DNA of 59,945 nucleotides, counting the filler, from Asterionella formosa (taxonomy: Eukaryota): NCBI GenBank assembly GCA_002256025.1. It is 13 parts of 13 records of this genome, joined end to end, with 100 filler letters (N's around TTAATTAATTAA, not from the genome) between each part and the next. Parts side by side here need not be neighbours in the genome. Positions count along the whole stretch, not along the records: positions 18,511 to 23,035 come from NKIB01013478.1; 12 more parts are not named here. One strand, given 5' to 3'. The notes below the pieces were generated by a model, which saw nothing but the letters and a program-made list of their open reading frames with translations, was not told the origin of the DNA and made no database searches. Of the stretch, positions 3,097 through 42,779 are shown in pieces; the first letter of the stretch is position 1, and each line of letters begins with the position of its first letter. Both the position numbers and the translations under genes were made by a program.

Positions 3097-4192
3097 CTCG
3101 ATACATTTCCTCTTTCACTCCACAGCCCCTGATGATGGGTACCAAAGTCCCTGATTCGAAAATGCGCCTGCTTGTCGTTTCTTCTCTTGGATATGTATTG
3201 CTACATGCTGGTTCGTCATAAAACTCGATTACATCGCTTACCGGTATTCTTGCCGGACTCTTTTGGTTGGATATTGTGGTGATTTCCGGTATCTCATCAT
3301 ACCGGTAGAATATTGCAGGATTATAAGTAGACTATCGTACCGGCACATACAGGTAGACTCTTCATATCCATCATGAAAAACTATATATCTGTGGTCCTCA
3401 TAACAGTGGTGCCCCTTTTATATTAGACCACCAGAGTTAAATGTACAGAGACTACCAGTACCAGTACAACGGTATAAATGTCTTCAAAAACGGAGGAGTT
3501 GCAAATGTATGTACAGTACAAAACAAGGACTTGCATTTTCCATAGATTTGCCTTTCATTTGTTCAATTTTTGCCTTCCTCTCACAGATGAAATCCTTGAT
3601 AGCATAAAGTCCTGCATGATTTAGGATGTGTTTGGGTAGATTCAGTGACGATTCGTCTCCAGCTAGAACTAGGTGTATTGTCGGTTTTGGAAATGCTTGA
3701 GTAGCTCATTCATGTTAATTGATAGTAGCTATGAATCTGAACCATACAGGAGTCCAGACTGTCAATCTCTTTATAGCACGATGTCATTGATTAGGGGTTG
3801 GCTACTTTTTTGAAATTCTTTGAAACCTCACTGACAGCAAGCACTAGTTGCTTCACCAGATCTTGTTTAATTCCTTCTTTCTATCTCATTGAGATTGCTG
3901 GTATGTTCATTTCAGCAGTTCATATGTGAAAGTTTAATGGTATTCATTTAGGGCATTGTTTTAGAAAATTCTACATTTGAGATGTTGAGGTAGTCTTCAT
4001 TCTCTACCAATGCAATAGCGTCTCTACAAATGGATAGTTTGTCTCCCAGAGTTTTGGAGTTTTGGTTGGCTATTGCGGTACACACTTGTTTCTGTTAACT
4101 CCAGTCATGCCTAGTACTATTTGTTCTGGTCAGCAGTGCTGATTGTTGGATTTCATTTGCTTCACTACTTCACTATCTGCCATTTCATTGCA

Positions 4193-4404
<212 letters not shown>

Positions 4405-4532
4405 TGAGTGCATGTATCTGTCCATTGTTGTTATCAATAACAAAGGTGCAATTATTCTGATGAAAAACTTGAATGAATCACATTGACACTTATTATGACA
4501 ACTAGGGGTGTATTGATTGGGACATGATACTT

Positions 4533-4632
4533 NNNNNNNNNNNNNNNNNNNNNNNNNNNNNNNNNNNNNNNNNNNNTTAATTAATTAANNNNNNNNNNNN
4601 NNNNNNNNNNNNNNNNNNNNNNNNNNNNNNNN
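4533..4632. other. Artificial contig linker N44-TTAATTAATTAA-N44. Also at 9161-9260, 13786-13885, 18411-18510, 23036-23135, 27661-27760, 32280-32379, 36896-36995, 41512-41611, 46126-46225, 50738-50837, 55343-55442
   Basis: Twelve identical 100-nt spacers with stops in all six frames; contig lengths never increase along the window. Confidence 0.99.
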
Positions 4633-4634
4633 AC

Positions 4635-7600
4635 CTTTCAGACGAAGACATCGTTTTCTTTCTTCTCTCACGCTACGGAATTGAAGTCACAGTTGAAGAT
4701 GTCAGAACTAAAGTTATTCGGGGATTGGGCGGAGGTGATGAAGTGGCGGACAGTTGCTTGGACCTAATGGAGATTGTTGCTATATTATTGATTCCCACTT
4801 TACTCAAGGCTGCATCCCCAGAAAAGATTCCCGACAACCTTATAAATCCAAAAGAGGGTTTGATTCAATTTGTTTGGAAGATCATGTTGCATGATACTAC
4901 AGGTACCAGCGAGCCGAAGCCCTTGACGAAGAAACTCATCCAACGAATTCTTATCTCTTACGGAGAATCAGAATTAGCTAGCAACGACCAGCTGGTAAAC
5001 GAAATGTTTGATTCAGCCGTCACCGACGATGGAGATCTTACTTTAGAAGCATTCACCAACGCCCTCACTGACGACATTGGCCTTTACGATATAAGAAGCG
5101 AGGCACGCAGAACAACAAACTACGACGACGTCTTCTTGACTCGAAATCATCACGAAAAATGGCATCCAGACGATGAAGAGAGCGGAGATCTTAACATTGC
5201 GACTCGGCAAGAGCGAAAAAGTATGTCTGTCAAGTTAAAACGGCGCTTCACTGCAGCGCCGATTGATTTTGTTGCGGGTACATATCGAAGCAAGACGTTG
5301 ACAGTTACCTTATTGGCAACATTTATTCTCGTATTCTTTGGTCCCCTCCGCTCCTCGAGCTTTGTTAACACTCAACTTTGTAATGATAGTGACCAAACAA
5401 AAAACTTTGTATACGGGGCAAGCTGGCCTGAAAACGCAAACTCCCTGGCTTGCACATCCGCAAATAGCGTTGCAAAATGGCTGGAAATATTCTTTTTGAT
5501 CAGCTTAATTGGGCTCATTGTTGTTGGTTTGGGGAGCATTGGGAATGACATATCGTGCCGGCGCTTTTACCTTCCCTTAATTGGTATGTTCTTTGTTGGT
5601 GTGTTGGCCACACCCCAGTTAAAAGCGAATAATTCCGCAGATAATTACGTAACTGTCATGGCCCTTTGTCTTGGATCAGTTGCCATGCTGATGCACCTGT
5701 CACATGCAGTGATTCTTCTCATTCCAAAACGCTGGTGGAGAGGCAAATTTCCTCGACTTGAAGCTTTCATGGGGTCTGATGGCATGACGAACATAGTCAT
5801 TATGAAACGAGCAGCAGCGTTTAAAGTCAATTTGCTTACCGAAAATGCATTGAGTTTAATTGTGCCAGAAGGTTCTGATGTTGTCTTGGAAAGTTATTAT
5901 GGGCAAGGAATTCTAGCATTCTCAAAATATGGAAAGAGTTACGAAGATATTGGGTTTGTTGGATTGTTGGAGCGAATCTACAACAGAGCCTTTGATAAAG
6001 AAGGCATATTCATATCTGCACGGCTTTTGTCAGCCAATATATCTCAATATATTGTGGCCATATTTATCTTGATAGCTGGGATCCAGTTGACGAAAACTGT
6101 TGTTCAGGAATACAGCAAGAATGAAGGGAAAGCACAAGCAATTGCATACATAGATATGCTATTCAATAATACAGTTGACGAAGATTTGGTGCGCACAGCA
6201 GTTGCCAATTTAAGCCTTGTTTTTAGTGGGTTCCTTGCGCAGCAGTCCAATCAAGCTTTTTTTGCACAGAACTGTCCATCCGCAAACCTTACAGGAAGCC
6301 CTGAAGAAGCTTGTACATTTGTCAACGGCTTCTACCTATGCAACAATGAAACATTGAGCTTAAACAATTCAAGTGCTTTGTGCTCTCTTGTGGGGTACTC
6401 ATCGAATTCATCAAGTGCAGATGGCCTACTGCAACTCGGGTTACTTGATGCATCAGGCTTGAATACAGAAAGCATATTGGGAATTGCGCGTGAGGCGACG
6501 AATGCTGCAGCCCAAGGTGCAATTGACAGTCTTTACCCAGCTGAACAATACATGATAACGATACCTTTAGTCATTGGGACCATTGCAGCATTTTTGACAG
6601 CTTTGTCTCTGGCTGTCACATACTTGCCATCTGCTACTGCAACTACTTTGAAGCTTAGGAGCGGTGTGATCCCAACATTTCGAGCCCCGAAAGACTTTCA
6701 ACTGTATCGATACGCAACCGACGAAGTTACTGCTTTGACTGGAGGAATGTTTTGGGGTTGTTTTATTGCATCGGTGTTGGTAGGGGCCTTGATTGCAGCG
6801 GTTATATTCATGTTCTTGTGGCAAGCGACGGTGGCCCTTGTCCAGAAGTTTGTTGCCATTGCGATTGGATTCCTAGTTGTCCTTATTGTCAAGTTGATCA
6901 TTATATTGTCGTTGCGGTGCACATTTTATCAAGCCTTTTATCGCCGACGCCCCGCAGGTGCCAACATTGCTGCATTGGCATTCGAATGCGCAAATTTCGC
7001 CTTGTCTGTTGGGTTCGTTTTTCTGCGAATGGTCAGATTTTTGGTCATGGGAGCCGTCTTTGTCGGCAGAATTGACACGCCCTTCCTAGCGGCAGACGTA
7101 GGGAGGTTGGGCAATTTTGAGCTTGATAAGTATCCCAGAATTTTCATGAAGGACATTCTTGCCCAAGAAGCTCACCGTCACCCTTACATCAACTTGCTTG
7201 GTGTGATGTACTTGATGAAGCTTCGCTATGGCGAGCACTTTGGTTGCCGCGCGGGGTCAACGTGGCGACTCATTTTTGTGCATGCGCTCATGCCTTGGCT
7301 TAATAAATACAGGGTACTCACTCGAACGACGAATGCTCGCGAAAATTTAAGTTCGAGAGGCATTGTGTTTCAGTCATTGAGGAAAGTGTTGGAAGAAAAA
7401 ACCGATGACAAGGATGATATGGATTCCATTCCCATACCATTAAGTGCCGCCCTCATAAGGCATTCATCAATGAAACAGCAACGTTCTAACAGAGCATCTT
7501 TGTTGGCAAAGGAAATTGGAGAAGAACGTTTAATAGAGGTCGAAGAAGAAAACGCTTCGCTCAAAATGGAACTTAACGATTTGGAGAGCGAGGTGCAGCG

Positions 7601-7640: not shown

Positions 7641-8000
7641 AAGTTTACTGTCTTTAGGAGCAGTATTCATCGACCAAGTGGTGGGTTGGTTGAACCATTT
7701 ACAGATGAAATTCCACAAATGTGAATTCCTTCAATAACTTATCATGACGAGGGAGCAATCAAAATAACAAAAAATAAGATTGATGTTGGATCAAGGTTGT
7801 GTGAATGAATGACGATGGACATGACCACCTAGCACATGGTTGCGAAGTCTTTTATATAGATTGGAAACATAGCTCAATTTCTCCACACAAAGCAGTGCGG
7901 CCGGCACGCAGGATTCTTCGTGGTAAAAAAAGAAAGCTCGAATTTTCAGACATGATTTCATACTTGATATTTACAGCATTTTAAATATTACACCCAGACC

Positions 8001-9160
8001 ATGGCGACGATAGCAGAGGCACCGCTCCAGGTGCCCAAGACTATGGCTGATGCCCTTGATATGGAAAATCCTCTTGAAGCGCTGCTCGCGTTGTCTGAGA
8101 GCTCATCTCAAAAGGCACAAGCGCTTGCGAACGAACTCGCGCACGAGCTCGAGGCATTTTCCATCGAGCTGCCAGACAAGTTCCGCAAAGATTCCGATGA
8201 GGTCGCAACTACAATGGCCAGTGTAGACTCGATTCTCAACTCACTGACAAAAATAGCAACTGGGGGAACGCAGGCGTCGAAAGAGATCAGAACGCTTGAG
8301 CAGGAGAAGAGAGATCTGGAATTGCACGCCCAGGACGTTGAGACTGCTCTCGCTCTGCGAATGAACTCTGATGGAGCGGCGGACGCTCTTAGCAGCCAGA
8401 AGTACGCAATCGCTGCGCAGTGTGTTCATGATTACCTTTTGAACCAAAAGCAAGAACGCCATACGCAGCGAGCTCTGGCATATGCTGGGGAGTACACCGT
8501 GTCTCAAATGGAGACTACTCAACGGGTATTAAAGGATACGCTCTTGCAAAAGTATGAGATCGGGGTTCAGCAAAGAAGCTTGCAGGCCCTGAGCGAATTA
8601 ACTCCCCTTTTGAGTCAGATACAGCTGGAAAAAGAAGCGGTCTCGATGTATCTGCGCTTCTTGCAGTCGTCGTTGGCGAACGAGCTGGATTCGGAATTGA
8701 AGAAACCGATGGCAGACAACCAACTTCCTCCGGACATGCCCTTATCTCGTGCTGCGAAACGACGTCAGGAAGCTGTGCAAGCATCTAGCGCAGCTCCTCC
8801 ATACGTTCAAATGGCCCGTGTATACAACGCGGCTGTTACAGCGCTTCGACACCATTTGCCAATGGTCTCGCACTTTTTGCACAAAGCCGACGGTGATGCT
8901 GCAGTTGTTCAACTTGTGCACATTCAGGTGGAACAGGCTGTCGTTCCTCTCTTTCAGTTTTATGTTTCAGATCGTCAACTCAATGTTGTGGCCCGGACGT
9001 CACAACGCATTTATCAGTTGTTGGAAGAAAAATACGTCGGACGCCTAGACGCAATGAATCAAGAAGTGTCGCTGACACAGGAAATGGACGACTGTGGATT
9101 CCAGGTAGAGATTGGGTCGCTCGCAGATGTGGACGGAGCCATGGAAGAGGCGGCTCTATG
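8001..9160 (+). CDS. COG4: Conserved oligomeric Golgi complex subunit 4, N-terminal part (3'-truncated)
   Basis: N-terminal coiled coil, then 'ALSSQKYAIAAQCVHDYL' and 'LQKYEIGVQQRSLQALSELTPLLSQIQLEKEAVSMYLRFL', matching the COG4 pattern; runs into the linker. Confidence 0.7.
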
Positions 9161-9289
9161 NNNNNNNNNNNNNNNNNNNNNNNNNNNNNNNNNNNNNNNN
9201 NNNNTTAATTAATTAANNNNNNNNNNNNNNNNNNNNNNNNNNNNNNNNNNNNNNNNNNNNTTCTACGATTCTATCATATCTTAAGTGGC

Positions 9290-13780: not shown

Positions 13781-13885
13781 AGCTANNNNNNNNNNNNNNN
13801 NNNNNNNNNNNNNNNNNNNNNNNNNNNNNTTAATTAATTAANNNNNNNNNNNNNNNNNNNNNNNNNNNNNNNNNNNNNNNNNNNN

Positions 13886-14507
13886 AGATGATGTCGGCAA
13901 GATGGTTTGTCGCGCGATTTTGTGTGATATCTTTGCGCTCCTGAAAGAAGCGAATGTCTTGGATGCGTAGCAGTTTGGTGCGTCGTTCACCGTGGATGGT
14001 CAAGTATTCACATGAGCGCATCGCGAAGAAAAATGCTAAGATAATGAGTGGGCCCATGCAAGTGTCGACCGGTGTTGCGTGTTGAAAGTATAATTTTAAA
14101 ATAAATTCGATTGTTAATGCTCGTTGATGTTTAACGGCTGGATCGGTATGTCGATAAGCGGAGAACTGGAGGCGTAGAATTCGGTGAGTCTTGCCGTGTA
14201 TGTTTGTTGCGGGGTCAGGTCTGTCGTTCTCCACAAAGGTCGCCGATAGAGATGCGATGGTGTCCCGGACTGTCGCTGATGCCAGAGGAGTGTCTCGATG
14301 TGTACTGAACTCGGCCTGCCGGACGGCATGCGCGAATGCTCCGATGAGTCGAATGCGTTGTTCTGGTGAGAGGTTGGCGAGGAATGGATCGGTGACATCA
14401 CAAAATCCAATGGACGCAAGGAATTCGGTCCAGATTCGGAAGACGCGATTGAGCTTCGCCGTGGTGTTAGCTTGAAGTCCTTGGGAGCGCGCCCGATCTG
14501 CATCCAT
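13886..14507 (-). CDS. Tyrosine recombinase, N-terminal part (3'-truncated), copy 1
   Basis: Core-binding region 'SATVRDTIASLSATF...RPDP' and box I 'AFFFAMRSCEY' with the catalytic Arg; overlaps the pol 3' end in another frame. Confidence 0.88.
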
Positions 14508-16813
14508 AAGGTAAGCTTGGAGGCGATGTCGGTGGGGAGCGGCGAGATGGAGAAATTCGGGGGCATCTGGTGGGTGGCCGAGTGATGGATGAGGTGTGTT
14601 AGTTGTGCATTTGATAGATGATGGTCACGAGAGAGGGCATCGGCTATCACGTTGTCATCTCCTGGGATCCATTGGCTGTAGCTACACGCCTGGGTTTGCT
14701 CGAGGATCGCGGCTAGCCAGCGAGAGATTGCTAAATGGGTCGATTTTTCTTGACCTTGAAACCGTGCGCCACCGCGGTGAAGCCAATAATCCGCCGTCGA
14801 GCTGTCCAGTTGGGAGAGAATGCAGTCGTCGGGTCTGATGTTACCGACTGCGGCTTCAGTTGCAATGGTGGTGATGGATGCAAGGTACTCCAGTAGGTTC
14901 AGCGACAGATGTCCCCGACATTCTGTTGGAATTTCGAATCGCCAGGCTCGGCCCGATGTGAGCGAGAACCCTCCGATTCCGTGTTGGCAGGCGTCGGCAC
15001 GCAGGAGGATGGTGGGAACACGTAGTGTTAGTCGGTTTAGGCTGATTCCTTGGCTTGCGGTACGTAAGAAGGTGAGCCATTGCCGCAATTCTTCCTTTTG
15101 TAATTCCGATAATGGAATTCTTTTTCCGCTGACCCTTGCTCGCCGTTCGGCACGTCGGAGATGGCATAGAAAGGCACGAGCGGTTGGGATCACATACGAG
15201 GCATGGTTCAGTCGACCGATCGTGGTCGCTAATACTTCACAATCAACCGTGGGCAACTGTAGTATGCGGTCAATTTCCGCATTCCAGGACGTGAGTTTAT
15301 CGTGGGGGAGGCGTAGTCGAAGGGTGCGTGTGTTCACCTCCCATCCTAAGATTATCTTGGATTCTTCTGGGGAGCCTTCTGCTGTCATTTTTTCGAACGC
15401 GAGTAGATCTTCACGTTGTAGGGGTTCGGATTCAGCTATAGGTCTGCCCAACAGATGTAGCATAAGCAGTGTAATTCGTGAACCTTTCCATATAGCTGTC
15501 GGATTATCCAAGAAACACGTAAATAGATCGTCTAGATAACATTCAGTAAACGGTGCTAGGTCAGCGTCGATCGCTACTGTCGTGGGTTGTGCTGGTTCAC
15601 AAGTTGACCTAGTGTTGAGGTACTTTGGCATGGTGACGTATTTTTGTTGGTGCGGGGATTCCAGTGTGGGCGTGGACTCCGAGTTCCATCGGTCGCAACG
15701 TGATAACAAATTGCACGTGTCGCATGCTAGTTCAGAGACATCGCTCCACATGCTTGGGTTTGGTGCCCCCCCGAAAGTCATCCGTAAAGCGAGAAGCGCT
15801 ATGTCATCGATAATGACTACGGCCTGTGACGCTGTGAGACTCGATGTATGTAGGCGGCGATACGCGGCTTTAAAATCTAATTTAGTCATTAGAATTCGAG
15901 TGTCCGGATAGATTCTTCTTAGATCCACTATGTAGTGAATAAATCGTCTCAGTGCGGTGCCGTATCTACACGGTGTCAGCGAGTCAAATATGACACGTGC
16001 ATTGACTGAAGTCCCTGGGGAGAACTCGAATGATTGGTCGTGGGTCAGCCGGTCTTTGGGTATTATTTCCCCGTGTGCGTTGATCGTGGCTTGCGTCACT
16101 AGACCTATCGGCGCTACAACAGCGTGTGGTAGTAGGCGGATATTTTCCGGTGGGAGTGGGAGTTGCCAGCCTCTGTCGACTTCTTTGATTAGAAGTTTCG
16201 TAACTATTTCATGTTTAAGTTTCGCCGATGTGTGGTTGCCTCGCGCGACGGCGAGCTTCAAGTCGTGTAGCCTCTGCTCGTCCAGTAGAGGTTTGAGCGG
16301 GAATTCTACACCAGTCGTGATGAGAGTGACGAAACGTCCCCACAGCGGATGGTAGGATAGTAGAGGACGCAGTAGGTGTAATGCTCGGAATTCCGAACCT
16401 ATACTGAGCGGGGAGTTGGCCTGGCTCGCAATTGCCTTGGTAATGTCTAGGTTGAACTGTACTAGTATCGCCCAGTTGTGGTTTGCCGCCTCCGTACTCC
16501 ATTCGAAACGAAATGTCGGTGTGTTCATATGCGGTGATGGGGTATCTAGAATGCAATTGATGTGTCGGAGCAACTCGTTTTCCAAAGTATGGCGTGATGT
16601 GTGTTGTTCGATGGTGGGGCTGGCGGGGAGTGGGGCTATTCGTGCAAATTGCCGCGGAGTGTCGTGGTGGCGGTCGGGCGAGTTTGTGTCTGTGCTGTCT
16701 GGTACGCAAACATCTGTAGCTAGTATTGTGTCGTGATCTGTACAGTCGGAATCGCTACCACCGGTATGGTAGCTTGACTTACCCAGGATAGTTTCATTGT
16801 TAGGTTGCGGCAT
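14114..16813 (-). CDS. Pol: reverse transcriptase + RNase H, copy 1 (frame open upstream to the gag stop at 17144-17146)
   Basis: RT motifs KDRLTHDQS, KLDFKAAYR, LRMTFGG and YLDD; RNase H motifs DAC..GIGG, LNLLEYLA, DSSTA and IPGDDNVIADALSR. Confidence 0.93.
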   Translation of the reverse strand: MPQPNNETILGKSSYHTGGSDSDCTDHDTILATDVCVPDSTDTNSPDRHHDTPRQFARIAPLPASPTIEQHTSRHTLENELLRHINCILDTPSPHMNTPTFRFEWSTEAANHNWAILVQFNLDITKAIASQANSPLSIGSEFRALHLLRPLLSYHPLWGRFVTLITTGVEFPLKPLLDEQRLHDLKLAVARGNHTSAKLKHEIVTKLLIKEVDRGWQLPLPPENIRLLPHAVVAPIGLVTQATINAHGEIIPKDRLTHDQSFEFSPGTSVNARVIFDSLTPCRYGTALRRFIHYIVDLRRIYPDTRILMTKLDFKAAYRRLHTSSLTASQAVVIIDDIALLALRMTFGGAPNPSMWSDVSELACDTCNLLSRCDRWNSESTPTLESPHQQKYVTMPKYLNTRSTCEPAQPTTVAIDADLAPFTECYLDDLFTCFLDNPTAIWKGSRITLLMLHLLGRPIAESEPLQREDLLAFEKMTAEGSPEESKIILGWEVNTRTLRLRLPHDKLTSWNAEIDRILQLPTVDCEVLATTIGRLNHASYVIPTARAFLCHLRRAERRARVSGKRIPLSELQKEELRQWLTFLRTASQGISLNRLTLRVPTILLRADACQHGIGGFSLTSGRAWRFEIPTECRGHLSLNLLEYLASITTIATEAAVGNIRPDDCILSQLDSSTADYWLHRGGARFQGQEKSTHLAISRWLAAILEQTQACSYSQWIPGDDNVIADALSRDHHLSNAQLTHLIHHSATHQMPPNFSISPLPTDIASKLTLWMQIGRAPKDFKLTPRRSSIASSESGPNSLRPLDFVMSPIHSSPTSHQNNAFDSSEHSRMPSGRPSSVHIETLLWHQRQSGTPSHLYRRPLWRTTDLTPQQTYTARLTEFYASSSPLIDIPIQPLNINEH

Positions 16814-17143
16814 CCGTGTGCTGGAGTGTAGCAGATGTGTGGGTCGTGCCAGGTACGGTGGTGGGTGCGGTAGTGGTGATATCGGTAGTGGCGGTAAGGC
16901 CGTTATCCTGATACAACGTGCTGAGTCCGTATTCTGATCTCGTATACGTGCGAAAAACTTCGTGCGTGATGTGGTTAATAATTTTGAGATATCGGATGGA
17001 CGAATCTTTCCCGACTCGGTGATGGTAAGTTTTGGAATTGTCGTCGTCTCGATCTTGTGCGCTACTATTGACGATGAACCGCGATAGACTGTTAAATGCC
17101 TCGTTACTGAATGCGTTACAGGGACTACCCGGGTGTGCCCTAG

Positions 17144-18410
17144 TCAATTTGATGTGTTCGAACTGCGTGGTGTGGTCGATGTCACATCGCGAATGGCCTC
17201 GGTGAAAAATGTTGCAAATGCTTTTTTGTTGTCGCCTGTTAACTGAACGTGTGCGTCTTTTCTATCACAGTTGTCTATGCAGATCCCTGATATCTGCCAA
17301 CGGCAACAATTTGTTGCCCCATTTACTCTGGGTGCCTTTCGCAGAACTGAGGGCGGAAAAGCGTCGCGATAGAAGATGCCTGTCGGAAGTCGAAAAAGGA
17401 TGTCGGCTCGCGGGTTGGTGACTGCTCTGCCTCGGATGAAATTTGTTGTGTTTTGTTGGTGGTTGTTTTCCTGCTGTTGATGTCTGTTTCCTTGTTGCTG
17501 GTGTCTGCGATTGTTTTCGTCGAATTGGTCGTCCCGAGTACGTTTGGAATGTAGAAAAAGTGCGGCAACCCGTGGGTGAAGTGGTGAGGTCATGGGGTTT
17601 CCGACAGCGATCTGGCGTTGTTGTTGCGAGAAATCGAGGAGTTGAAAATCCATTTCTTGGACTGATCTTGCATACCTTGAGTTGCGCCAGAACGCCTGTA
17701 TCATGTTGTCCATGATTGTAAGTTGGTGCGCGAAAAAGCGAAAATCGAGATCGGAGCAATGCCGATAGGTGGCGCGATTTGCCTCGATATGGGTTAGCCA
17801 CGTGCACAATCGGTCAGCAGTGAAGCAATTTCCTAGAACGAAAAGGACAATTGCGATCATGTTCTTAATGGTTGTTTCAAAATCTGCAACCGTCTTTGCA
17901 ACAATCAACAGTTTCTTGTCGCTCAAACGTTTCATGATCTGATTGTAGCGGTCGCTGTCTCCTGCTGCGTCAATGGTGGCATTAGATATGATCTCTATAT
18001 CTTACGAAGACACCATGTTATTCGACTCCGATAGCAGTTTGAAAAGGCTGATGCGTGAAGGTCCTTCGGTCGGGTCGTAGTTGAACTGTAATTGGCTAAT
18101 ACACAGAGTTGTAAATGGATCTAAACGTAGATCTTGACAGTTTAGAATGGATTGTAGATACTCTGCCATAAATTGCTGTGCTGCGGATGTATTCGAGCTG
18201 AGCGAGAGGAATGTAGCAAGGGATTGAATGGGCTCCGTAATGATGTCGTCATCATGAGCTGCCATTAAACGAAGGATCTGATCTTGGAGGAATTTAGGTT
18301 GTTTTTCCCAGGCCCTAGAAGAAGATGGAGTGTTAGAAGACCTAGCTTCCACTAACCTGTCTGTGTTTGTAGCTAGGTTCGAAGCAGCGCTCACTAGTGC
18401 TGCGGCTACC
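17144..18410 (-). pseudogene. Gag-like ORF, copy 1, 5'-partial, interrupted by premature TAA at 18002-18004
   Basis: Nearly identical to copy 2, but the Ser codon TCA is changed to TAA; C-terminal Cys/His knuckle CCRWQISGICIDNCDRKDAH. Confidence 0.85.
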
Positions 18411-18510
18411 NNNNNNNNNNNNNNNNNNNNNNNNNNNNNNNNNNNNNNNNNNNNTTAATTAATTAANNNNNNNNNNNNNNNNNNNNNNNNNNNNNNNNNN
18501 NNNNNNNNNN

Positions 18511-19132
18511 AGATGATGTCGGCAAGATGGTTTGTCGCGCGATTTTGTGTGATATCTTTGCGCTCCTGAAAGAAGCGAATGTCTTGGATGCGTAGCAGTT
18601 TGGTGCGTCGTTCACCGTGGATGGTCAAGTATTCACATGAGCGCATCGCGAAGAAAAATGCTAAGATAATGAGTGGGCCCATGCAAGTGTCGACCGGTGT
18701 TGCGTGTTGAAAGTATAATTTTAAAATAAATTCGATTGTTAATGCTCGTTGATGTTTAACGGCTGGATCGGTATGTCGATAAGCGGAGAACTGGAGGCGT
18801 AGAATTCGGTGAGTCTTGCCGTGTATGTTTGTTGCGGGGTCAGGTCTGTCGTTCTCCACAAAGGTCGCCGATAGAGATGCGATGGTGTCCCGGACTGTCG
18901 CTGATGCCAGAGGAGTGTCTCGATGTGTACTGAACTCGGCCTGCCGGACGGCATGCGCGAATGCTCCGATGAGTCGAATGCGTTGTTCTGGTGAGAGGTT
19001 GGCGAGGAATGGATCGGTGACATCACAAAATCCAATGGACGCAAGGAATTCGGTCCAGATTCGGAAGACGCGATTGAGCTTCGCCGTGGTGTTAGCTTGA
19101 AGTCCTTGGGAGCGCGCCCGATCTGCATCCAT
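18511..19132 (-). CDS. Tyrosine recombinase, N-terminal part (3'-truncated), copy 2
   Basis: AFFFAMRSCEY box I motif; overlaps pol over 18739-19132; its frame is open upstream to 19249. Confidence 0.88.
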
Positions 19133-21438
19133 AAGGTAAGCTTGGAGGCGATGTCGGTGGGGAGCGGCGAGATGGAGAAATTCGGGGGCATCTGGTGGGT
19201 GGCCGAGTGATGGATGAGGTGTGTTAGTTGTGCATTTGATAGATGATGGTCACGAGAGAGGGCATCGGCTATCACGTTGTCATCTCCTGGGATCCATTGG
19301 CTGTAGCTACACGCCTGGGTTTGCTCGAGGATCGCGGCTAGCCAGCGAGAGATTGCTAAATGGGTCGATTTTTCTTGACCTTGAAACCGTGCGCCACCGC
19401 GGTGAAGCCAATAATCCGCCGTCGAGCTGTCCAGTTGGGAGAGAATGCAGTCGTCGGGTCTGATGTTACCGACTGCGGCTTCAGTTGCAATGGTGGTGAT
19501 GGATGCAAGGTACTCCAGTAGGTTCAGCGACAGATGTCCCCGACATTCTGTTGGAATTTCGAATCGCCAGGCTCGGCCCGATGTGAGCGAGAACCCTCCG
19601 ATTCCGTGTTGGCAGGCGTCGGCACGCAGGAGGATGGTGGGAACACGTAGTGTTAGTCGGTTTAGGCTGATTCCTTGGCTTGCGGTACGTAAGAAGGTGA
19701 GCCATTGCCGCAATTCTTCCTTTTGTAATTCCGATAATGGAATTCTTTTTCCGCTGACCCTTGCTCGCCGTTCGGCACGTCGGAGATGGCATAGAAAGGC
19801 ACGAGCGGTTGGGATCACATACGAGGCATGGTTCAGTCGACCGATCGTGGTCGCTAATACTTCACAATCAACCGTGGGCAACTGTAGTATGCGGTCAATT
19901 TCCGCATTCCAGGACGTGAGTTTATCGTGGGGGAGGCGTAGTCGAAGGGTGCGTGTGTTCACCTCCCATCCTAAGATTATCTTGGATTCTTCTGGGGAGC
20001 CTTCTGCTGTCATTTTTTCGAACGCGAGTAGATCTTCACGTTGTAGGGGTTCGGATTCAGCTATAGGTCTGCCCAACAGATGTAGCATAAGCAGTGTAAT
20101 TCGTGAACCTTTCCATATAGCTGTCGGATTATCCAAGAAACACGTAAATAGATCGTCTAGATAACATTCAGTAAACGGTGCTAGGTCAGCGTCGATCGCT
20201 ACTGTCGTGGGTTGTGCTGGTTCACAAGTTGACCTAGTGTTGAGGTACTTTGGCATGGTGACGTATTTTTGTTGGTGCGGGGATTCCAGTGTGGGCGTGG
20301 ACTCCGAGTTCCATCGGTCGCAACGTGATAACAAATTGCACGTGTCGCATGCTAGTTCAGAGACATCGCTCCACATGCTTGGGTTTGGTGCCCCCCCGAA
20401 AGTCATCCGTAAAGCGAGAAGCGCTATGTCATCGATAATGACTACGGCCTGTGACGCTGTGAGACTCGATGTATGTAGGCGGCGATACGCGGCTTTAAAA
20501 TCTAATTTAGTCATTAGAATTCGAGTGTCCGGATAGATTCTTCTTAGATCCACTATGTAGTGAATAAATCGTCTCAGTGCGGTGCCGTATCTACACGGTG
20601 TCAGCGAGTCAAATATGACACGTGCATTGACTGAAGTCCCTGGGGAGAACTCGAATGATTGGTCGTGGGTCAGCCGGTCTTTGGGTATTATTTCCCCGTG
20701 TGCGTTGATCGTGGCTTGCGTCACTAGACCTATCGGCGCTACAACAGCGTGTGGTAGTAGGCGGATATTTTCCGGTGGGAGTGGGAGTTGCCAGCCTCTG
20801 TCGACTTCTTTGATTAGAAGTTTCGTAACTATTTCATGTTTAAGTTTCGCCGATGTGTGGTTGCCTCGCGCGACGGCGAGCTCCAAGTCGTGTAGCCTCT
20901 GCTCGTCCGGTAGAGGTTTGAGCGGGAATTCTACACCAGTCGTGATGAGAGTGACGAAACGTCCCCACAGCGGATGGTAGGATAGTAGAGGACGCAGTAG
21001 GTGTAATGCTCGGAATTCCGAACCTATACTGAGCGGGGAGTTGGCCTGGCTCGCAATTGCCTTGGTAATGTCTAGGTTGAACTGTACTAGTATCGCCCAG
21101 TTGTGGTTTGCCGCCTCCGTACTCCATTCGAAACGAAATGTCGGTGTGTTCATATGCGGTGATGGAGTATCTAGAATGCAATTGATGTGTCGGAGCAACT
21201 CGTTTTCCAAAGTATGGCGTGATGTGTGTTGTTCGATGGTGGGGCTGGCGGGGAGTGGGGCTATTCGTGCAAATTGCCGCGGAGTGTCGTGGTGGCGGTC
21301 GGGCGAGTTTGTGTCTGTGCTGTCTGGTACGCAAACATCTGTAGCTAGTATTGTGTCGTGATCTGTACAGTCGGAATCGCTACCACCGGTATGGTAGCTT
21401 GACTTACCAAGGATAGTTTCATTGTTAGGTTGTGGCAT
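18739..21438 (-). CDS. Pol: reverse transcriptase + RNase H, copy 2 (frame open upstream to 21768)
   Basis: Same RT (YLDD) and RNase H motifs as copy 1; no DAM-methyltransferase motif seen after RNase H. Confidence 0.93.
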   Translation of the reverse strand: MPQPNNETILGKSSYHTGGSDSDCTDHDTILATDVCVPDSTDTNSPDRHHDTPRQFARIAPLPASPTIEQHTSRHTLENELLRHINCILDTPSPHMNTPTFRFEWSTEAANHNWAILVQFNLDITKAIASQANSPLSIGSEFRALHLLRPLLSYHPLWGRFVTLITTGVEFPLKPLPDEQRLHDLELAVARGNHTSAKLKHEIVTKLLIKEVDRGWQLPLPPENIRLLPHAVVAPIGLVTQATINAHGEIIPKDRLTHDQSFEFSPGTSVNARVIFDSLTPCRYGTALRRFIHYIVDLRRIYPDTRILMTKLDFKAAYRRLHTSSLTASQAVVIIDDIALLALRMTFGGAPNPSMWSDVSELACDTCNLLSRCDRWNSESTPTLESPHQQKYVTMPKYLNTRSTCEPAQPTTVAIDADLAPFTECYLDDLFTCFLDNPTAIWKGSRITLLMLHLLGRPIAESEPLQREDLLAFEKMTAEGSPEESKIILGWEVNTRTLRLRLPHDKLTSWNAEIDRILQLPTVDCEVLATTIGRLNHASYVIPTARAFLCHLRRAERRARVSGKRIPLSELQKEELRQWLTFLRTASQGISLNRLTLRVPTILLRADACQHGIGGFSLTSGRAWRFEIPTECRGHLSLNLLEYLASITTIATEAAVGNIRPDDCILSQLDSSTADYWLHRGGARFQGQEKSTHLAISRWLAAILEQTQACSYSQWIPGDDNVIADALSRDHHLSNAQLTHLIHHSATHQMPPNFSISPLPTDIASKLTLWMQIGRAPKDFKLTPRRSSIASSESGPNSLRPLDFVMSPIHSSPTSHQNNAFDSSEHSRMPSGRPSSVHIETLLWHQRQSGTPSHLYRRPLWRTTDLTPQQTYTARLTEFYASSSPLIDIPIQPLNINEH

Positions 21439-21739
21439 CCGTGTGCTGGAGTGTAGCAGATGTGTGGGTCGTGCCAGGTACGGTGGTGGGTGCGGTAGTG
21501 GTGATATCGGTAGTGGCGGTAAGGCCGTTATCCTGATACAACGTGCTGAGTCCGTATTCTGATCTCGTATACGTGCGAAAAACTTCGTGCGTGATGTGGT
21601 TAATAATTTTGAGATATCGGATGGACGAATCTTTCCCGACTCGGTGATGGTAAGTTTTGGAATTGTCGTCGTCTCGATCTTGTGCCCTACTATTGACGAT
21701 GAACCGCGATAGACTGTTAAATGCCTCGTTACTGAATGC

Positions 21740-21771
21740 GTTACAGGGACTACCCGGGTGTGCCCTAGTCA
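21740..21771 (-). promoter_or_regulatory. Candidate programmed stop-codon readthrough signal UGA-CUAG plus 3' stem-loop (copy 1: 17115-17146)
   Basis: Minus strand reads TCA AAT TGA CTA GGG CAC ACC CGG GTA GTC CCT GTA; gag and pol are in the same frame. Confidence 0.7.
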
Positions 21772-23035
21772 ATTTGATGTGTTCGAACTGCGTGGTGTGG
21801 TCGATGTCACATCGCGAATGGCCTCGGTGAAAAATGTTGCAAATGCTTTTTTGTTGTCACCTGTTAACTGAACGTGTGCGTCTTTTCTATCACAGTTGTC
21901 TATGCAGATCCCTGATATCTGCCAACGGCAACAATTTGTTGCCCCATTTACTCTGGGTGCCTTTCGCAGAACTGAGGGCGGAAAAGCGTCGCGATAGAAG
22001 ATGCCTGTCGGAAGTCGAAAAAGGATGTCGGCTCGCGGGTTAGTGACTGCTCTGCCTCGGATGAAATTTGTTGTGTTTTGTTGGTGGTTGTTTTCCTGCT
22101 GTTGATGTCTGTTTCCTTGTTGCTGGTGTCTGCGATTGTTTTCGTCGAATTGGTCGTCCCGAGTACGTTTGGAATGTAGAAAAAGTGCGGCAACCCGTGG
22201 GTGAAGTGGTGAGGTCATGGGGTTTCCGACAGCGATCTGGCGTTGTTGTTGCGAGAAATCGAGGAGTTGAAAATCCATTTCTTGGACTGATCTTGCATAC
22301 CTTGAGTTGCGCCAGAACGCCTGTATCATGTTGTCCATGATTGTAAGTTGGTGCGCGAAAAAGCGAAAATCGAGATCGGAGCAATGCCGATAGGTGGCGC
22401 GATTTGCCTCGATATGGGTTAGCCACGTGCACAATCGGTCAGCAGTGAAGCAATTTCCTAGAACGAAAAGGACAATTGCGATCATGTTCTTAATGGTTGT
22501 TTCAAAATCTGCAACCGTCTTTGCAACAATCAACAGTTTCTTGTCGCTCAAACGTTTCATGATCTGATTGTAGCGGTCGCTGTCTCCTGCTGCATCAATG
22601 GTGGCATTGGATATGATCTCTATATCTGACGAAGACACCATGTTATTCGACTCCGATAGCAGTTTGAAAAGGCTGATGCGCGAAGGTCCCTCGGTCGGGT
22701 CGTAGTTAAACTGTAATTGGCTAATGCACAGAGTTGTAAATGGATCTAAACGTAGATCTTGACAGTTTAGAATGGATTGTAGATACTCTGCCATAAATTG
22801 CTGTGCTGCGGATGTATTCGAGCTGAGCGAGAGGAATGTAGCAAGGGATTGAATGGGCTCCGTAATGATGTCGTCATCATGAGCTGCCATTAAACGAAGG
22901 ATCTGATCTTGGAGGAATTTAGGTTGTTTTTCCCAGGCCCTAGAAGAAGATGGAGTGTTAGAAGACCTAGCTTCCACTAACCTGTCTGTGTTTGTAGCTA
23001 GGTTCGAAGCAGCGCTCACTAGTGCTGCGGCTACC
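21769..23035 (-). CDS. Gag-like protein with C-terminal CCCH-type knuckle, copy 2, 5'-partial
   Basis: More than 416 open codons upstream of pol; Q/N-rich linker, then CCRWQISGICIDNCDRKDAH. Confidence 0.85.
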
Positions 23036-23135
23036 NNNNNNNNNNNNNNNNNNNNNNNNNNNNNNNNNNNNNNNNNNNNTTAATTAATTAANNNNNNNNN
23101 NNNNNNNNNNNNNNNNNNNNNNNNNNNNNNNNNNN

Positions 23136-25647: not shown

Positions 25648-27660
25648 TCACTTAATGTTATTCCTCCGAAGTGTTGAGCGTTTTGGCTGTTTTTCCATCT
25701 TCATGCTGTCAAGTTCTTCCTGCAGCTTTGCTATCACATCACTTAAAGCTGTAATTTGTTCTAAAGCTTTCCTTTCTCTTTCCATTACCTCCTTAATGTC
25801 CTGAGTATTCCTGCAAACTTCATCCTTGTAAGCTTCACGATGATCTGCATACATTTGGCCGCCATCACTTTGTGGAGGGGACTTCATCTTGGCCACATTT
25901 TGTTTAACCGCATCTAATTCGAGCTCAACTTTGGCTCTATCTGCAAGTGCATCATTCAGCCTCTGGGAGTATTGCTTTTGAGAATCTTTCAACCGCTTCA
26001 CATCTGTGGCAAGATAATCAACATCAACTTCACTGGATCCTTGGATGACCAAAGCTTCTTTATCACTAACCACTTTCGTTTTTTCAGTTACGCAGGGTTT
26101 GATGTCTTGATTCAGAAACGAACCATTATTTGCATTCATGGTAGTGACTGTATTCGGTAGTTGAATCTTTGGTAGTTTCTTAACTTCATCAATTGACATG
26201 TTCAAGGTATTTGCAGCAAGACATTCATGCAGGTTTATCTCGAAATCGAAACTATGAAAAAAAAGTAGAGAGGAGTATCTACTCCTGGCTTCATTATGTG
26301 AGCAAGAGCACAGTCAGCAACTGCACATCCTTTTTCCCTTGCCGGTGTGTTTGCTTTCTCAGCATGCATGTCTTGAAATTCCCAAACTTGTCATCAATGG
26401 TGCCAAATGTTTTGTCAGCATGCAGTGCCCGTACCATTATTCTAGCAAAGCACTCTACATCATACTTGTATGATACATAATTGTTTCTCTTCAGGGAAGC
26501 TAGAGTGGCAAAATCTGCAACATTAGCAACACCCAGCCACTGATCTCGACTCTCTTTGAGTTGAACAATCATCTGAAAGAAGGAACCAATTGTATGCGCA
26601 CCAGGTAATTGTATTTCATTCTTAACAACCCCGATGGCATTAGCAACAAGTGCACCAATTTTGGTATTCTTGATCTGCTCAACTTTATTATTTCTAAAAA
26701 GTTGGATGATAAAAGAACGTACAGAACCATTGCTACCAGCTGCCAGCATGTTTGAGGAAAGACCCTCACAAGCTCCAATCATACAGTTTAGTTTGCCAAA
26801 AAGTTCTAGATAGAACTCACTGTATTTCTTACAAGAAAGGATTGCCTTTTGTTCCTCCTGATCGTCAGAATCCTGGCTTGTTTTTTCAAGAAATATTTTC
26901 AATATTTCCTGATGCTTGGTTGTGAGTTCAAAACTAGATGCTTGATTTGACTTCTTGTCATCAAAAGATTCAATGAGAATCTTAATACGTTCATTGTCTT
27001 CTTGCGTCTTTGACATAAGCTTGACAAGATTCTCATGTACAATGCGCTCATTGTCTCCTTTTGTATTGGTGCCTTCCTGTTGCTGATTAATTTAAAACCT
27101 ATCTTTGACAATGTGATCAGTGGGGTTATTTCTGCTTGGTGTTGAAGTTGTTGGGGAAGGAGGATATGCTGCATTTTTTGTTGTTGTTGATGATGTTGGC
27201 TGAGTTGTGTTGGCTACTGTTGGTTTGCGGTTCTTGTTTGCATCAATGAGTTTGTTTATATCTTTTAGTAGACCAATTGAATTCTTCCAGAGAGAAAGTG
27301 TGGTCAAGACAGTATTGACTTTGAGAGCCTCTGCAATGGCCTTGGCTCCATGATCACCAATTGAATTATTATAGAGATCAAGTCTAGTCAAGACAGTATT
27401 GACCTTGAGAGCCACTGCAATGGCCTTGGCTCCGTCAACACCAATTGAATTACTTCCGAGATCCAGTGTAGTCAATCCAGTATTGACCTTGAGAGCCTCT
27501 GCAATGGCCTTGGCTCCGTCAAAACCAATTGAATTATTACAGAGATAAAGTGTTGTCAATACAGTATTGACCTTGAGAGCCTCTACAATGGCCTTGGATC
27601 CGTCAAAACCAATTGAATTCCAACTGAGATCAAGTTTAGTCAAGACAGCATTGTCCTTGA
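25648..27660 (-). pseudogene. Disrupted gene for an RI-type (NLRC3-like, 28-aa) leucine-rich-repeat protein with a C-terminal coiled coil; 5'-partial
   Basis: LTTLDLGSNSIGVDGAKAIAVALKVNTV-type repeats. The TAA at 27092-27094 is in frame with ORF 27016-26294 (25 open codons between), and further frameshifts near 26230-26380 lead into ORF 26205-25648. Confidence 0.65.
27270..27660. repeat. 84-bp coding tandem repeat (LRR units), about 4.5 copies
   Basis: Recurring 'cagtattgaccttgagagcctctgcaatggccttggctcc...ccaattgaatt' at 84-nt period. Confidence 0.9.
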
Positions 27661-27760
27661 NNNNNNNNNNNNNNNNNNNNNNNNNNNNNNNNNNNNNNNN
27701 NNNNTTAATTAATTAANNNNNNNNNNNNNNNNNNNNNNNNNNNNNNNNNNNNNNNNNNNN

Positions 27761-29689
27761 CTGCGGCTACTTCTGCTGCAGCGGCTGCCATGTTTCAAGC
27801 GGCCCTTGCTCAGAATCCTGTCATGGCAAAAACTGGCGGAGCTGAGACCTATAACGCTATGCAGCACCTTGCATACTATCAATTCATCCAATCTCAAGCA
27901 GTCGCTCAGATCGCCCAAATGGGAAGCCCCCAGAATTTTTTCGACCAAAATGCTGCCTTAGCATTTGCTGGACAACAAGCAGTCTCTCAACTGCAAGGTG
28001 AGTTATGCAAGTTATGCAGCATCGACCATGATCTATTTTGTTTCTCTGTTGGAGTCATCGTCGTTTTCTTCTGTTTTCCTTTCCTTCGCTGTTTCAATCG
28101 GAAACGTACACAATACCGATCGCCTGATGATGCCATTGATTCAAGTAACCTGGTACCATGCCTGGGTTCCCATCAACATCTGTTTTTTGAGTGGAAGAAT
28201 GCATCCAGAACGAGCAGCTTGCGCATCTAAACGAGCACGTGTCACGGTTCTGACATCGATGACCTCACATTTTCAAACGTTTTGATTGGCTGTCCCAAAA
28301 TGTCGAAACAAGCTGTTCCCGCTGCTTTTCGCGTCTGCTTCGTTCCAGATGGCCCTACGCCATTTGGTTTTTAATACTGGCACGCACTTTGCACAGACAC
28401 GCTGACTTCGAAACCATGCATCACATGGCATCATCACGGTGTCTACCTGCCAGATGACTCCAGAATATGACAAATCTTGGGATTATTCTTGAGCTTGGTT
28501 TCGCCATATCCACTTTTTGTCTAACATCTCCTTTCCCTTCCGCAATCCAGCTCCTTCTCCATCCATGATGGCGGCCCATCCCTCGCATGCACAGCATATC
28601 AATGCGCTTGGGGCTACCATGTCAAACTTACAGCAGGTCATTCCAGGTCCATCGCCGGTAACGGCTTCATCAAAGCCATTGCCGACCGGAAATATGTTAC
28701 CACCACCTCCACCTTCTCAGGTTCCTCCAATCCCTAGTATCTCAAGCTCCCAGCAGCTTCCCATTGCTCCCAATAAACCTGTACTTGCGAGTCCAACGCA
28801 AACTAACATAGCTTTACGTCCAGTTTCGAGTTGCAACGCGGATAATAGTGGAAGTGATGATGACATCAGTCCTTACGGGGAGGGTCACGGCGACAAGAAA
28901 CATCTAAAGCGCGCTGCCAATCGTCGATCGGCTCAACTAAGTCGGAAAAGAAAGAAGCAGTTCATTGAAGAGCTTAAGGAAGAAAATGACGAACTTCGTC
29001 GGAAAGAAGCCATCCTTCGCTCAATTCCAGATCTCATTGTTGTCTTTGACTCTGCTGGCAAACTTTGGTTTGTATCTCACTCTGTGAACCGCTTTTTGGA
29101 CTTTTCTCCTTCGGAACTGCAGGGATCTTCCTTTTGGGAGAGACTATGCCCAGAGAGCGTCCGTCTCCTCAAGGCTGCCTTCATGGACGCCCTTGCTGCT
29201 CGAAAGCCTGACATGGACACTGCTGCACTTGGTGCTGGGGTTTGGGAACTAAGGCTTGTGGACAAGGACGGCTCGCACAAGGTCATTACTCTCAATGGTG
29301 TGGTTCACTTTAGCGGTGAGACTCCAGAGTGTGTCTGCTCCATTCGCCCTCGCGACGAGCTTTCTGAAGGAGGTGGTGCTGCTGCCCCGCTGGTCGCAGC
29401 TTTGTCGGACTCCACCACAGTCAGTCTTTCTGAATCATCTCATGTGGTTGCATCCGTTTCGGCGTCTTCTGGAAGTGGCCATCATCATGGACGAAAGCAA
29501 AGTACTGTCTTCACTGACATCAAGCCTGGGCAGTCTGTTATAAGCACTTCCTGCGGAAGCGAATCCTCCGTTCGCATCGTACAGGGAAAACATGGCGCGA
29601 ACGACGCCCCTGATGCAGACCGTCAAGCTGTTCGTATCAGTGATGCCGACAGCGGAAGTGTCGTGAGTGAAAGCGGAAGTGATGAATGA
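27761..29689 (+). CDS. bZIP-PAS transcription factor (stramenopile type), 5'-partial; exons <27761-27997 and 28551-29689
   Basis: bZIP basic region KRAANRRSAQLSRKRKKQFIEELKEENDEL followed by a PAS domain (SIPDLIVVFDSAGKLWFVSHSV...). Phase-1 intron G|GTGAGT (27998) ... CTAAC ... CCAG| (28550) keeps the frame. Confidence 0.9.
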
Positions 29690-42358: not shown

Positions 42359-42779
42359 ATAATTGATCAAAGAGCAACAGCTATTGATCAATCAAACAAT
42401 GTATCAATATGTCAAGGCATTTGGTTAGCATATTAGTTTTGATAACTAATATATGTGACTTCTATCTATGCGAATCTGACAAACAAATTTGATTACCCAC
42501 ACCAACACGGTCATTGATACATCAAAATTATCATCAACATAACAAAACATTTGATCAATATATCAACAATTTCGGTTAACTGATTAGATTTGGTAACTAA
42601 TATAAACGAGTTCTTATATATGCATAACCTCCTAACATGTGTATGCTAAAAACCTAACGTACAAATTTTATTGATCATACAGACACTCCAATTGATACAT
42701 CAAAATTATCATCAACATGTCAAAATATTTGAATAATCAATAAGTTTTTAAACGTATGCTGAGTAAAAAGTTAGATCTA
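42359..42779. repeat. AT-rich dispersed repeat, uninterrupted copy
   Basis: Reverse complement of 32759-33850 without the MITE; contains internal sub-repeats (aaaattatcatcaacat twice). Confidence 0.85.

Follow-up and report, generated by a model that had tools for sequence, protein, structure and literature searches.

An in-frame UGA between ORF1 and pol as a probable site of programmed readthrough in a tyrosine-recombinase retrotransposon from Asterionella formosa

Gammaretroviruses and several RNA viruses set the ratio of structural protein to polymerase by reading through a stop codon. In animals, UGA-CUAG readthrough of cellular genes provides C-terminal extensions of cellular proteins. 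For viral signals, the sections of Firth et al. 2011 (PMC3159437) drawn on here distinguish three types: Type I signals consist of a stop codon followed by CAA-UYA. In type II signals the UGA is followed by CUA or CGG; an extended stem 7-8 nucleotides (nt) past the stop and two peaks of synonymous-site conservation are often present. Type III signals combine UAG-G with a pseudoknot, as in murine leukaemia virus (MuLV). Among retrotransposons that carry a tyrosine recombinase, Ngaro and VIPER are described without a methyltransferase domain and are said to be usually free of overlaps between their open reading frames (ORFs), according to the part of PMC3266345 drawn on here. Here we analyse such a retrotransposon in a 59,945 nt stretch of DNA from Asterionella formosa (assembly GCA_002256025.1; the whole stretch is called the window). 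In this element a single in-frame UGA separates ORF1 from pol (ORF2), which encodes a reverse transcriptase (RT) and an RNase H-like part. From sequence comparison we consider it probable, at roughly 0.78, that the element produces an ORF1-Pol fusion by programmed UGA readthrough.

The junction lies on the minus strand of the window (see Table 1 for coordinates). As described in a previous sequence-only reading of this DNA, ORF1 ends at a TGA directly followed by CTAG, and the two ORFs (21769..23079 and 18739..21768, stop to stop) share one frame. For 110 codons after the stop there is neither a further stop nor an in-frame ATG, GTG or TTG, while two CTG codons occur. The next codon is the ATG at 21438-21436, at which gene callers place the start of pol (P0001, 899 aa). 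The same arrangement with the same open 110 codons is present in a second copy, also in agreement with that reading. The two copies are not adjacent: The window is a chain of contigs of ~4.5-4.6 kilobases (kb) in falling order of length, with spacers of the form N44-TTAATTAATTAA-N44 in between that introduce stops in all six frames. Because the pieces were joined artificially, features on either side of a spacer are not genomic neighbours. Both copies are separate contigs of exactly 4525 nt with 99.67% identity (15 differences), and both are cut within ORF1 as well as within the recombinase ORF (ORF3). The reading frame of ORF1 in the window runs into the Ns of the spacer, and only its C-terminal 421 codons are present.

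Searching metagenome contigs with a pol alignment yielded 398 confirmed relatives; the 80 best were retained as loci L001-L080. Two of these, L001 and L002, share 99.2-99.4% identity with the window contigs and extend beyond them. Each closes on itself, the unit being 6520 nt long (the end overlap of L001 is exact over 83 nt), and the window contig continues past the end of L002 into its start. The unit contains ORF1 (719 codons), the TGA, pol (1009 codons, ending at TAA), ORF3 and ~570 nt without a long ORF. Stop to stop, the complete ORF1 occupies 1361-3517 of L002; its first Met is codon 22, which leaves 698 codons from the Met. ORF3 and pol overlap by ~510 nt. Self-closing contigs were also found for L006, L010, L019, L023, L024 and L072. 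In L002 coordinates, joints leading from the end of the unit back to its start ("going back 6520") were present in runs of both kinds, DNA and RNA. At unit positions 1082/1083 contigs had loose ends whose flanks varied, and in three runs 1395-1399 was joined back to 817-819 through a constant stretch of 16-22 nt. These joints are compatible with split direct repeats and a circular junction, the putative integration break being at 1082/1083. Relatives with an organism name come from the diatom Fragilaria crotonensis. Scanning viral contigs with the pol alignment provided no relative.

We characterized the encoded proteins by sequence and by predicted fold. For window ORF1, pol and ORF3, Pfam returned nothing at E <= 0.01, including integrase (rve) and protease families, and at E <= 10 it gave a single chance-level LAG-3 row. 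Sequence searches of the PDB with pol alone and with a pol profile gave nothing useful. With 30 relatives as input, AlphaFold modelled the pol core with a predicted local distance difference test score (pLDDT) of 81.6 and a predicted template modelling score (pTM) of 0.81. The best Foldseek matches of this model in the PDB were the RTs of Moloney murine leukaemia virus (MMLV, E 2.7e-10) and Ty3 (1.3e-9), together with those of cauliflower mosaic virus (CaMV), foamy virus, xenotropic murine leukaemia virus-related virus (XMRV) and HIV-1. In all 30 sequences the motif A Asp (D236) and the YxDD pair (D351-D352) are invariant, as are D530, E565, D593 and D648 of the RNase H-like part. The last ~110 residues of pol are predicted to be disordered (pLDDT <50 at residues 715-774 and 784-822). 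Since the region after RNase H is disordered in the model and has no Pfam match, we found no methyltransferase domain there.

An alignment of ORF3 from seven lineages revealed an invariant R (AFFFAMRSCEY), QK, HSxRS, GRW and Y (YIR), i.e. the R..K..HxxR..W..Y signature of tyrosine recombinases. Six of the seven members match Pfam Phage_integrase below its curated cut-off (best E 0.0019), and the best PDB profile matches are the Cre/Tre recombinases (E 0.07-0.1). The RT fold of pol and the recombinase signature of ORF3 support the class that had been assigned from sequence, a tyrosine-recombinase retrotransposon. By the definitions in the sections of PMC3266345 and PMC12440569 drawn on here, the element is of the DIRS order with an Ngaro/PAT type of layout.

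The earlier label "Gag" for ORF1 was not supported. ORF1 has no Pfam, sequence or fold match to a capsid or nucleocapsid protein: without separate folding of single domains, Foldseek gave no match at E <= 0.001 (best E 0.53), VIA-align wide gave generic helical bundles only (Z <= 5.9) and Atlas unnamed clusters only. Because ORF1 matches no known family or fold, "Gag" is a positional label only. Near its C-terminus 23 relatives carry a Cys/His motif (C, G-x-C, x3, C, then H), which may be a zinc knuckle, though one unlike the CCHC of retroviral nucleocapsids.

Conservation around the stop was evaluated in five close lineages (L002, L004/L008, L006, L007 and L010), which have the sequence TGA-CTAGGGCA-NNNN-CG(G/A)GTA in common. 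These lineages are far apart: between L002 and L006, L007 or L010, ORF1 is 38-40% and pol 55-58% identical, and the synonymous divergence dS between close lineages is saturated at 1.3-2.0. The last codons of ORF1 differ, and the third bases of the Leu (CTA), Gly (GGG) and Val (GTA) codons after the stop are kept in all five, which points to selection acting on the RNA. The conserved TGA-CTA(G) and the open linker, which the sequence-only reading had suggested looking for in relatives, are found in five lineages with saturated dS, in which the ORF1 C-terminus and the remainder of the linker have diverged. Short conserved peptides within the linker (LGxxRV and L[TS]xY[RC][GA]) begin at the first codon past the stop. 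Between the stop and the pol core of L002, L004, L006 and L010, a distance of 185-229 codons, no stop interrupts the pol frame, compared to 8-11 stops in one of the remaining frames and 3-7 in the other. Both ORFs are strongly constrained, with ratios of non-synonymous to synonymous divergence (dN/dS) of 0.064 and 0.076 between L002 and L004 and of 0.06-0.14 for ORF1 and the pol core across comparisons.

These data also bear on whether the TGA is merely a knock-out mutation in dead copies. One inherited mutation could be shared by two window copies as similar as these, but it would hardly recur with the same context in dS-saturated lineages whose flanking ORFs are under strong purifying selection. 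The element is also abundant: near-identical copies were present in 20 runs (6 of them RNA libraries) from 12 studies, covering freshwater, lake and estuary metagenomes and metatranscriptomes. A knock-out is thus barely credible.

To classify the junction across the wider family, we walked upstream from the pol core in each of the 80 loci and located ORF1 by homology. Of the 46 classifiable loci, 19 carry a single in-frame stop at the boundary of ORF1 and pol, 17 of them assigned by script and two (L027 and L045) reassigned by the upstream walk. ORF1 and pol are fused in two (L011, L012), pol lies in the -1 frame with an overlap in nine, and a gap of 300-770 nt separates the two ORFs in 16. 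Further single-stop cases are L007, L030, L079 and L070. Collapsing near-identical loci leaves ~18 single-stop lineages, 17 of which use TGA and one TAG; in 13 a C follows directly. TGA is found in 16/17 single-stop lineages (L007 left out) vs 1/7 of the -1 clade (Fisher p = 3.5e-4). The junction type follows the pol tree (a quick tree with midpoint root from 42 rows with >=400 residues of pol core): 8 changes were required compared to a mean of 19.4 after shuffling, and 0/200 shuffles were as low. Three stop contexts recur: UGA-CUA in the five close lineages and L022, UGA-CGG in L024/29, L042 and L079, and UGA-CAA-UUA in L047, L052, L055, L056/58 and L059. All three agree with the leaky classes distinguished in PMC3159437. 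A pattern scan of viral contigs for the junction motif returned two matches (one unrelated sequence without ORF1/pol homology), a chance result.

An independent start of pol would make the shared frame incidental. Pol would then begin at the ATG at 21438 or beyond, reached by leaky scanning, reinitiation, internal entry or from a subgenomic RNA. The gene callers' choice of this ATG, the poor conservation of the linker and the clades with ORF1 and pol apart or in other frames are in line with such a start. The position of the ATG is, however, not conserved: it lies 110 codons past the stop in the window compared to 50, 161 and 47 codons in L004, L006 and L010. In the single-stop loci generally the first ATG of ORF2 is found 38-238 codons past the stop at no fixed place. 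Of the 25 ORF1s listed, 24 have a Met within codons 1-39, the exception being a 77-codon fragment without any (L016). Furthermore, the pol frame is open from the codon right after the ORF1 stop, and in the same frame, in ~18 lineages, the LGxxRV peptides start upstream of any start codon, and TGA followed by C is far above expectation. We therefore regard an independent start as improbable.

Another possibility is that the UGA is fully decoded, as selenocysteine or by a variant code of the host, such that ORF1 and pol would form one ordinary ORF. The conservation of a single UGA would suit this, as would the fused L012, where in a weak and thus tentative alignment a Trp stands opposite the TGA of the sister lineage L013, which would amount to a one-base change. 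TGA, however, terminates pol or ORF3 in the relatives L011, L013, L019 and L052, and is therefore a real stop in the family. Moreover, each ORF1-pol unit has only one TGA, located at the domain boundary, the 3' contexts are of the leaky termination type, and Rfam detected no family in L002, L024 and L053 at E <= 1, including the selenocysteine insertion sequence (SECIS), although a divergent SECIS could escape such a search. Full decoding is accordingly very improbable.

We also searched for RNA structure downstream of the stop. The small stem-loop proposed previously (AGGGCAC..GTCCCT) can be drawn, yet it is not part of the minimum-energy fold, and four relatives with the same stop context lack it, such that this part of the earlier proposal has to be dropped. 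For the five close lineages RNAalifold paired CGGGUAG with a second conserved block, CUAYCGCG, forming a long-range stem. It comprises 13 predicted pairs with 92% of the cells paired and 3 pairs changed on both sides, and 9/500 shuffles scored as high. When the partners were slid against each other as a control, 39-58% of the cells were paired. In L006 (z -1.8) and L010 (z -2.4) this stem is the minimum-energy fold. In the close clade it is a candidate only. Elsewhere in the family a 10-base-pair (bp) hairpin lies 7 nt past the stop in L014, L024, L032, L042, L053, L070, L071 and L072, with 98.8% of the cells paired, 4 compensatory pairs and 0/500 shuffles as high, independent of the six bases after the stop. 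In the L052 clade a 12-bp long-range helix lies 7 nt past UGA-CAAUUA, with 5 pairs changed on both sides.

In some other retroelements ORFs are said to be joined by splicing. A spliced mRNA that drops the stop or joins ORF1 to pol was therefore considered using contig sets from three RNA libraries (three studies) and one DNA set, which were compared with L002, where the TGA is at 3518-3520. The stop was crossed colinearly in 4/4 runs, the RNA contigs covering 3183-4921 (X15), 2870-3687 (X16) and 2590-3669 (X17) of L002, and no GT..AG joint was found near the TGA in the four sets. The search for spliced pol RNA suggested by the sequence-only reading thus found the stop crossed unspliced in RNA-library contigs. 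Splicing is favoured by an apparent intron in the L052 group, which would restore the frame within the linker in 6/6 loci, and by an odd joint (3539 -> 4562 of L002) in run X15. The intron, however, lies ~110-150 codons past the stop and leaves it in place, while in the window element ORF2 is continuous and hence needs no intron. The odd joint is the only one nearby. It starts 19 nt past the TGA, skips 1022 nt (~1 kb including part of the pol core) and has TC..GT instead of GT..AG ends, a 30-nt side and a depth of 13.8 vs 86.8; a deletion derivative or a chimera might explain it. Overall, we consider splicing quite improbable.

Several observations weigh against readthrough, including the odd joint. 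RNA-library contigs may hold DNA; since they can neither prove transcription nor show transcript ends, they are weak evidence against a spliced pol mRNA. Constraint on the linker is low, with a dN/dS of 0.42 between L002 and L004 and a range of 0.42-0.61 at saturated dS. In the window copies frame +2 is stop-free over the first 110 codons as well. In the wider family 46/80 loci were classifiable, since 34 were too short for both ORFs, and other clades use other ORF1/pol arrangements, such that the in-frame stop is not universal. The 60 nt and 77 nt past the stop of the window element fold no better than shuffles (z +0.28 and z +1.15), and the long-range stem is not its minimum-energy fold. The covariation of that stem comes from five sequences and amounts to ~two independent events, and the blocks concerned code for conserved peptides as well. 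Finally, the fusion protein is a prediction from sequence. In favour are the conserved stop, its context and the common frame, the fused and -1 sister clades and the unspliced RNA-library contigs. The earlier proposal of a fusion with RT-RNase H made by programmed readthrough is thus supported by comparison, while the Gag identity and the small stem-loop are not supported.

For the mechanism we infer the occurrence and efficiency of readthrough and the role of the stem as follows. The genomic RNA would present ORF1 and pol in one frame, with a single UGA in between. Most ribosomes would terminate at the UGA and release the ORF1 protein, while a minority would decode it by a near-cognate tRNA and continue through a ~190-residue disordered linker into RT-RNase H. 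The ORF1-Pol fusion would thereby be made at a low and fixed ratio. The signal would be a leaky UGA-CUA(G), extended by the conserved bases GGGCA .. CGGGUAG, and the long-range stem, with its 5' arm 11 nt past the stop, would probably assist.

The sister clades suggest that recoding modes may be interchangeable. In the -1 clade GGATTTT occurs in the phase G_GAT_TTT of ORF1 in 11/13 loci examined, with the ORF1 stop directly behind it in L015, L026, L043, L048 and L076. After a 6-7 nt spacer follows a stem GGGGCAG..CUGCCCC, of which L026 has a compensated variant. The part of PMC11050907 drawn on here calls G_GAU_UUU a typical -1 slippery motif. GGATTTT and stem together look like a classical -1 frameshift cassette, and X_XXY_YYZ heptamers were limited to one in this clade (AAAAAAC in L016).

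In the L052 clade ORF1 ends at TGA-CAATTA, a tobamovirus-like context, and an apparent frame-restoring GTRAG..YAG intron of 87-133 nt lies just before the pol core in 6/6 loci. The assignment of this intron rests on its conserved position because each locus allows many chance solutions. It would be unusual for a retroelement to keep an intron. Clades with different pol frames have the block "ORF1 stop, NNN, GGG(G)CA" in common, and the 3' arms of the L052 clade and the close clade are similar. Together the shared block and the similar arms suggest a single ancestral cassette whose recoding mode was exchanged. We put at even odds that this family cassette consisted of the ORF1 stop, 3-7 nt and a GC-rich long-range stem starting with GGG(G)C, that the mode changed repeatedly and that the window element is the readthrough form. 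The modes on the proposed cassette would be UGA readthrough of type II (CUA/CGG) or type I (CAAUUA), a -1 frameshift at G_GAU_UUU directly before the stop, and fusion, with an added spliceosomal linker intron in one clade.

Other pieces of the window carry features of their own, eukaryotic genes among them. An ORF-rich piece contains an 84-nt unit repeated four times in tandem; a short-period repeat of ~210 nt and a 313-nt inverted repeat pair are also present. A protein with bZIP and PAS domains has an architecture that we take to resemble the aureochromes of photosynthetic stramenopiles. A PHD-PHD-SET histone methyltransferase is split over two overlapping frames, likely by an intron, and a COG4 N-terminal domain is encoded elsewhere.

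Table 1. Positions of features in the window and, where a locus is named, in related loci (own coordinates).
Feature	Sequence	Position	Strand	Remark
In-frame UGA stop, proposed readthrough site	window	21769..21771	-	
CTAGGGCA directly 3' of the stop	window	21761..21768	-	invariant in L002, L004, L006, L007, L010
5' arm (CCGGGUAG) of candidate long-range stem	window	21750..21757	-	GGGC 21765-21762 may extend the arm
3' arm (CUAUC-G-CGG) of candidate long-range stem	window	21704..21712	-	
ORF1, C-terminal part	window	21772..23034	-	contig starts at 23035
Cys/His motif of ORF1	window	21880-21940	-	~residues 645-665 of L002
Linker, 187 codons, Pro-rich, fast-evolving	window	21208..21768	-	between stop and conserved pol core
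Pol core, RT fold and RNase H-like part	window	18742..21207	-	TAA 18741-18739
ORF3, first 246 codons of tyrosine recombinase	window	18511..19249	-	other frame, overlaps 3' end of pol, cut by contig end
Copy 1 contig	window	13886-18410	-	TGA at 17146-17144
Copy 2 contig	window	18511-23035	-	TGA at 21771-21769
Spacers	window	4533-4632, 9161-9260, 13786-13885, 18411-18510, 23036-23135, on to 55343-55442		artificial
10-bp hairpin	L024	2175-2230		
10-bp hairpin	L032	2828-2883		
10-bp hairpin	L042	2120-2175		
10-bp hairpin	L053	2096-2151		
10-bp hairpin	L071	2075-2130		
10-bp hairpin	L072	3268-3323		
GGATTTT start	L015, L016, L019	2648, 5668, 2764		
GGATTTT start	L026, L036, L043	1682, 2168, 554		
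GGATTTT start	L048, L067, L076	3526, 2335, 574		
L052-clade junction region	L052	2441-2930		
L052-clade junction region	L055	275-740		
L052-clade junction region	L056	2101-2535		
L052-clade junction region	L059	462-960		
L052-clade junction region	L047	671-1195		
84-nt tandem unit, four copies	window	27272-27691		
Short-period repeat	window	4193-4404		
Inverted repeat pair	window	42777-44222		
bZIP and PAS protein	window	28493-29686	+	
PHD-PHD-SET histone methyltransferase	window	746-3114	-	
COG4 N-terminal domain	window	7968-9158	+	

In the open literature we came across no account of readthrough for DIRS, Ngaro or PAT elements, with older reviews of the order lying outside the coverage, such that an earlier mention is possible; nor did we find a description of tyrosine-recombinase retrotransposons in diatoms. 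If readthrough holds true, the viral recoding class of UGA-CUA/CGG with a 3' stem would extend to a eukaryotic mobile element of ecologically dominant algae, and the junction would provide a natural compact readthrough cassette for tests of termination fidelity in diatoms. The modes of the family (readthrough, -1 frameshifting and fusion) would also form a rare series, as they replace one another beside apparently the same RNA stem.

Compared with Ngaro, VIPER and PAT-like elements, the present element shares the LTR-type RT/RNase H (LTR, long terminal repeat), a tyrosine recombinase instead of an integrase and the order ORF1, RT-RNase H, recombinase. Like Ngaro and VIPER it lacks a methyltransferase domain. 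Its contig joints would fit split direct repeats and a circular junction. It differs by the overlap of ORF3 with pol and by an unusually long ORF1 of ~700 aa; the likeness to Ngaro and VIPER rests on published descriptions. With the animal UGA-CUAG genes it shares the CUAG after the UGA, whereas the present case concerns the fusion of a mobile-element polymerase and has a longer conserved block (CUAGGGCA).

The gag-pol junction of gammaretroviruses, e.g. MMLV, is similar in having an upstream ORF and pol in frame with one stop in between and a fusion made at a set ratio, as far as described in the sections of PMC5009743 and PMC3159437 drawn on here; the RT fold found here is also nearest to the MMLV and Ty3 RTs. 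In the same sections MuLV has UAG-G, a compact pseudoknot 8 nt downstream and a protease first in pol, whereas the present element has UGA-C, neither a protease nor a DDE integrase was detected, and a tyrosine recombinase serves for integration. A further close match is the type II signal of alphaviruses, tobraviruses, furoviruses and relatives, again within the limits of the sections of PMC3159437 drawn on. Shared are the UGA-CUA (CGG in sister lineages), a polymerase as readthrough extension, synonymous-site conservation 3' of the stop and two pairable blocks with a spacer of 7-11 nt. The differences are that the carrier is an algal retrotransposon and not an RNA virus, and that the predicted stem is shorter, with a loop of ~40 nt, and not thermodynamically prominent in the window element. 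The recoding mechanism and its context classes are known ones, to which the element order and the host group are apparently new.

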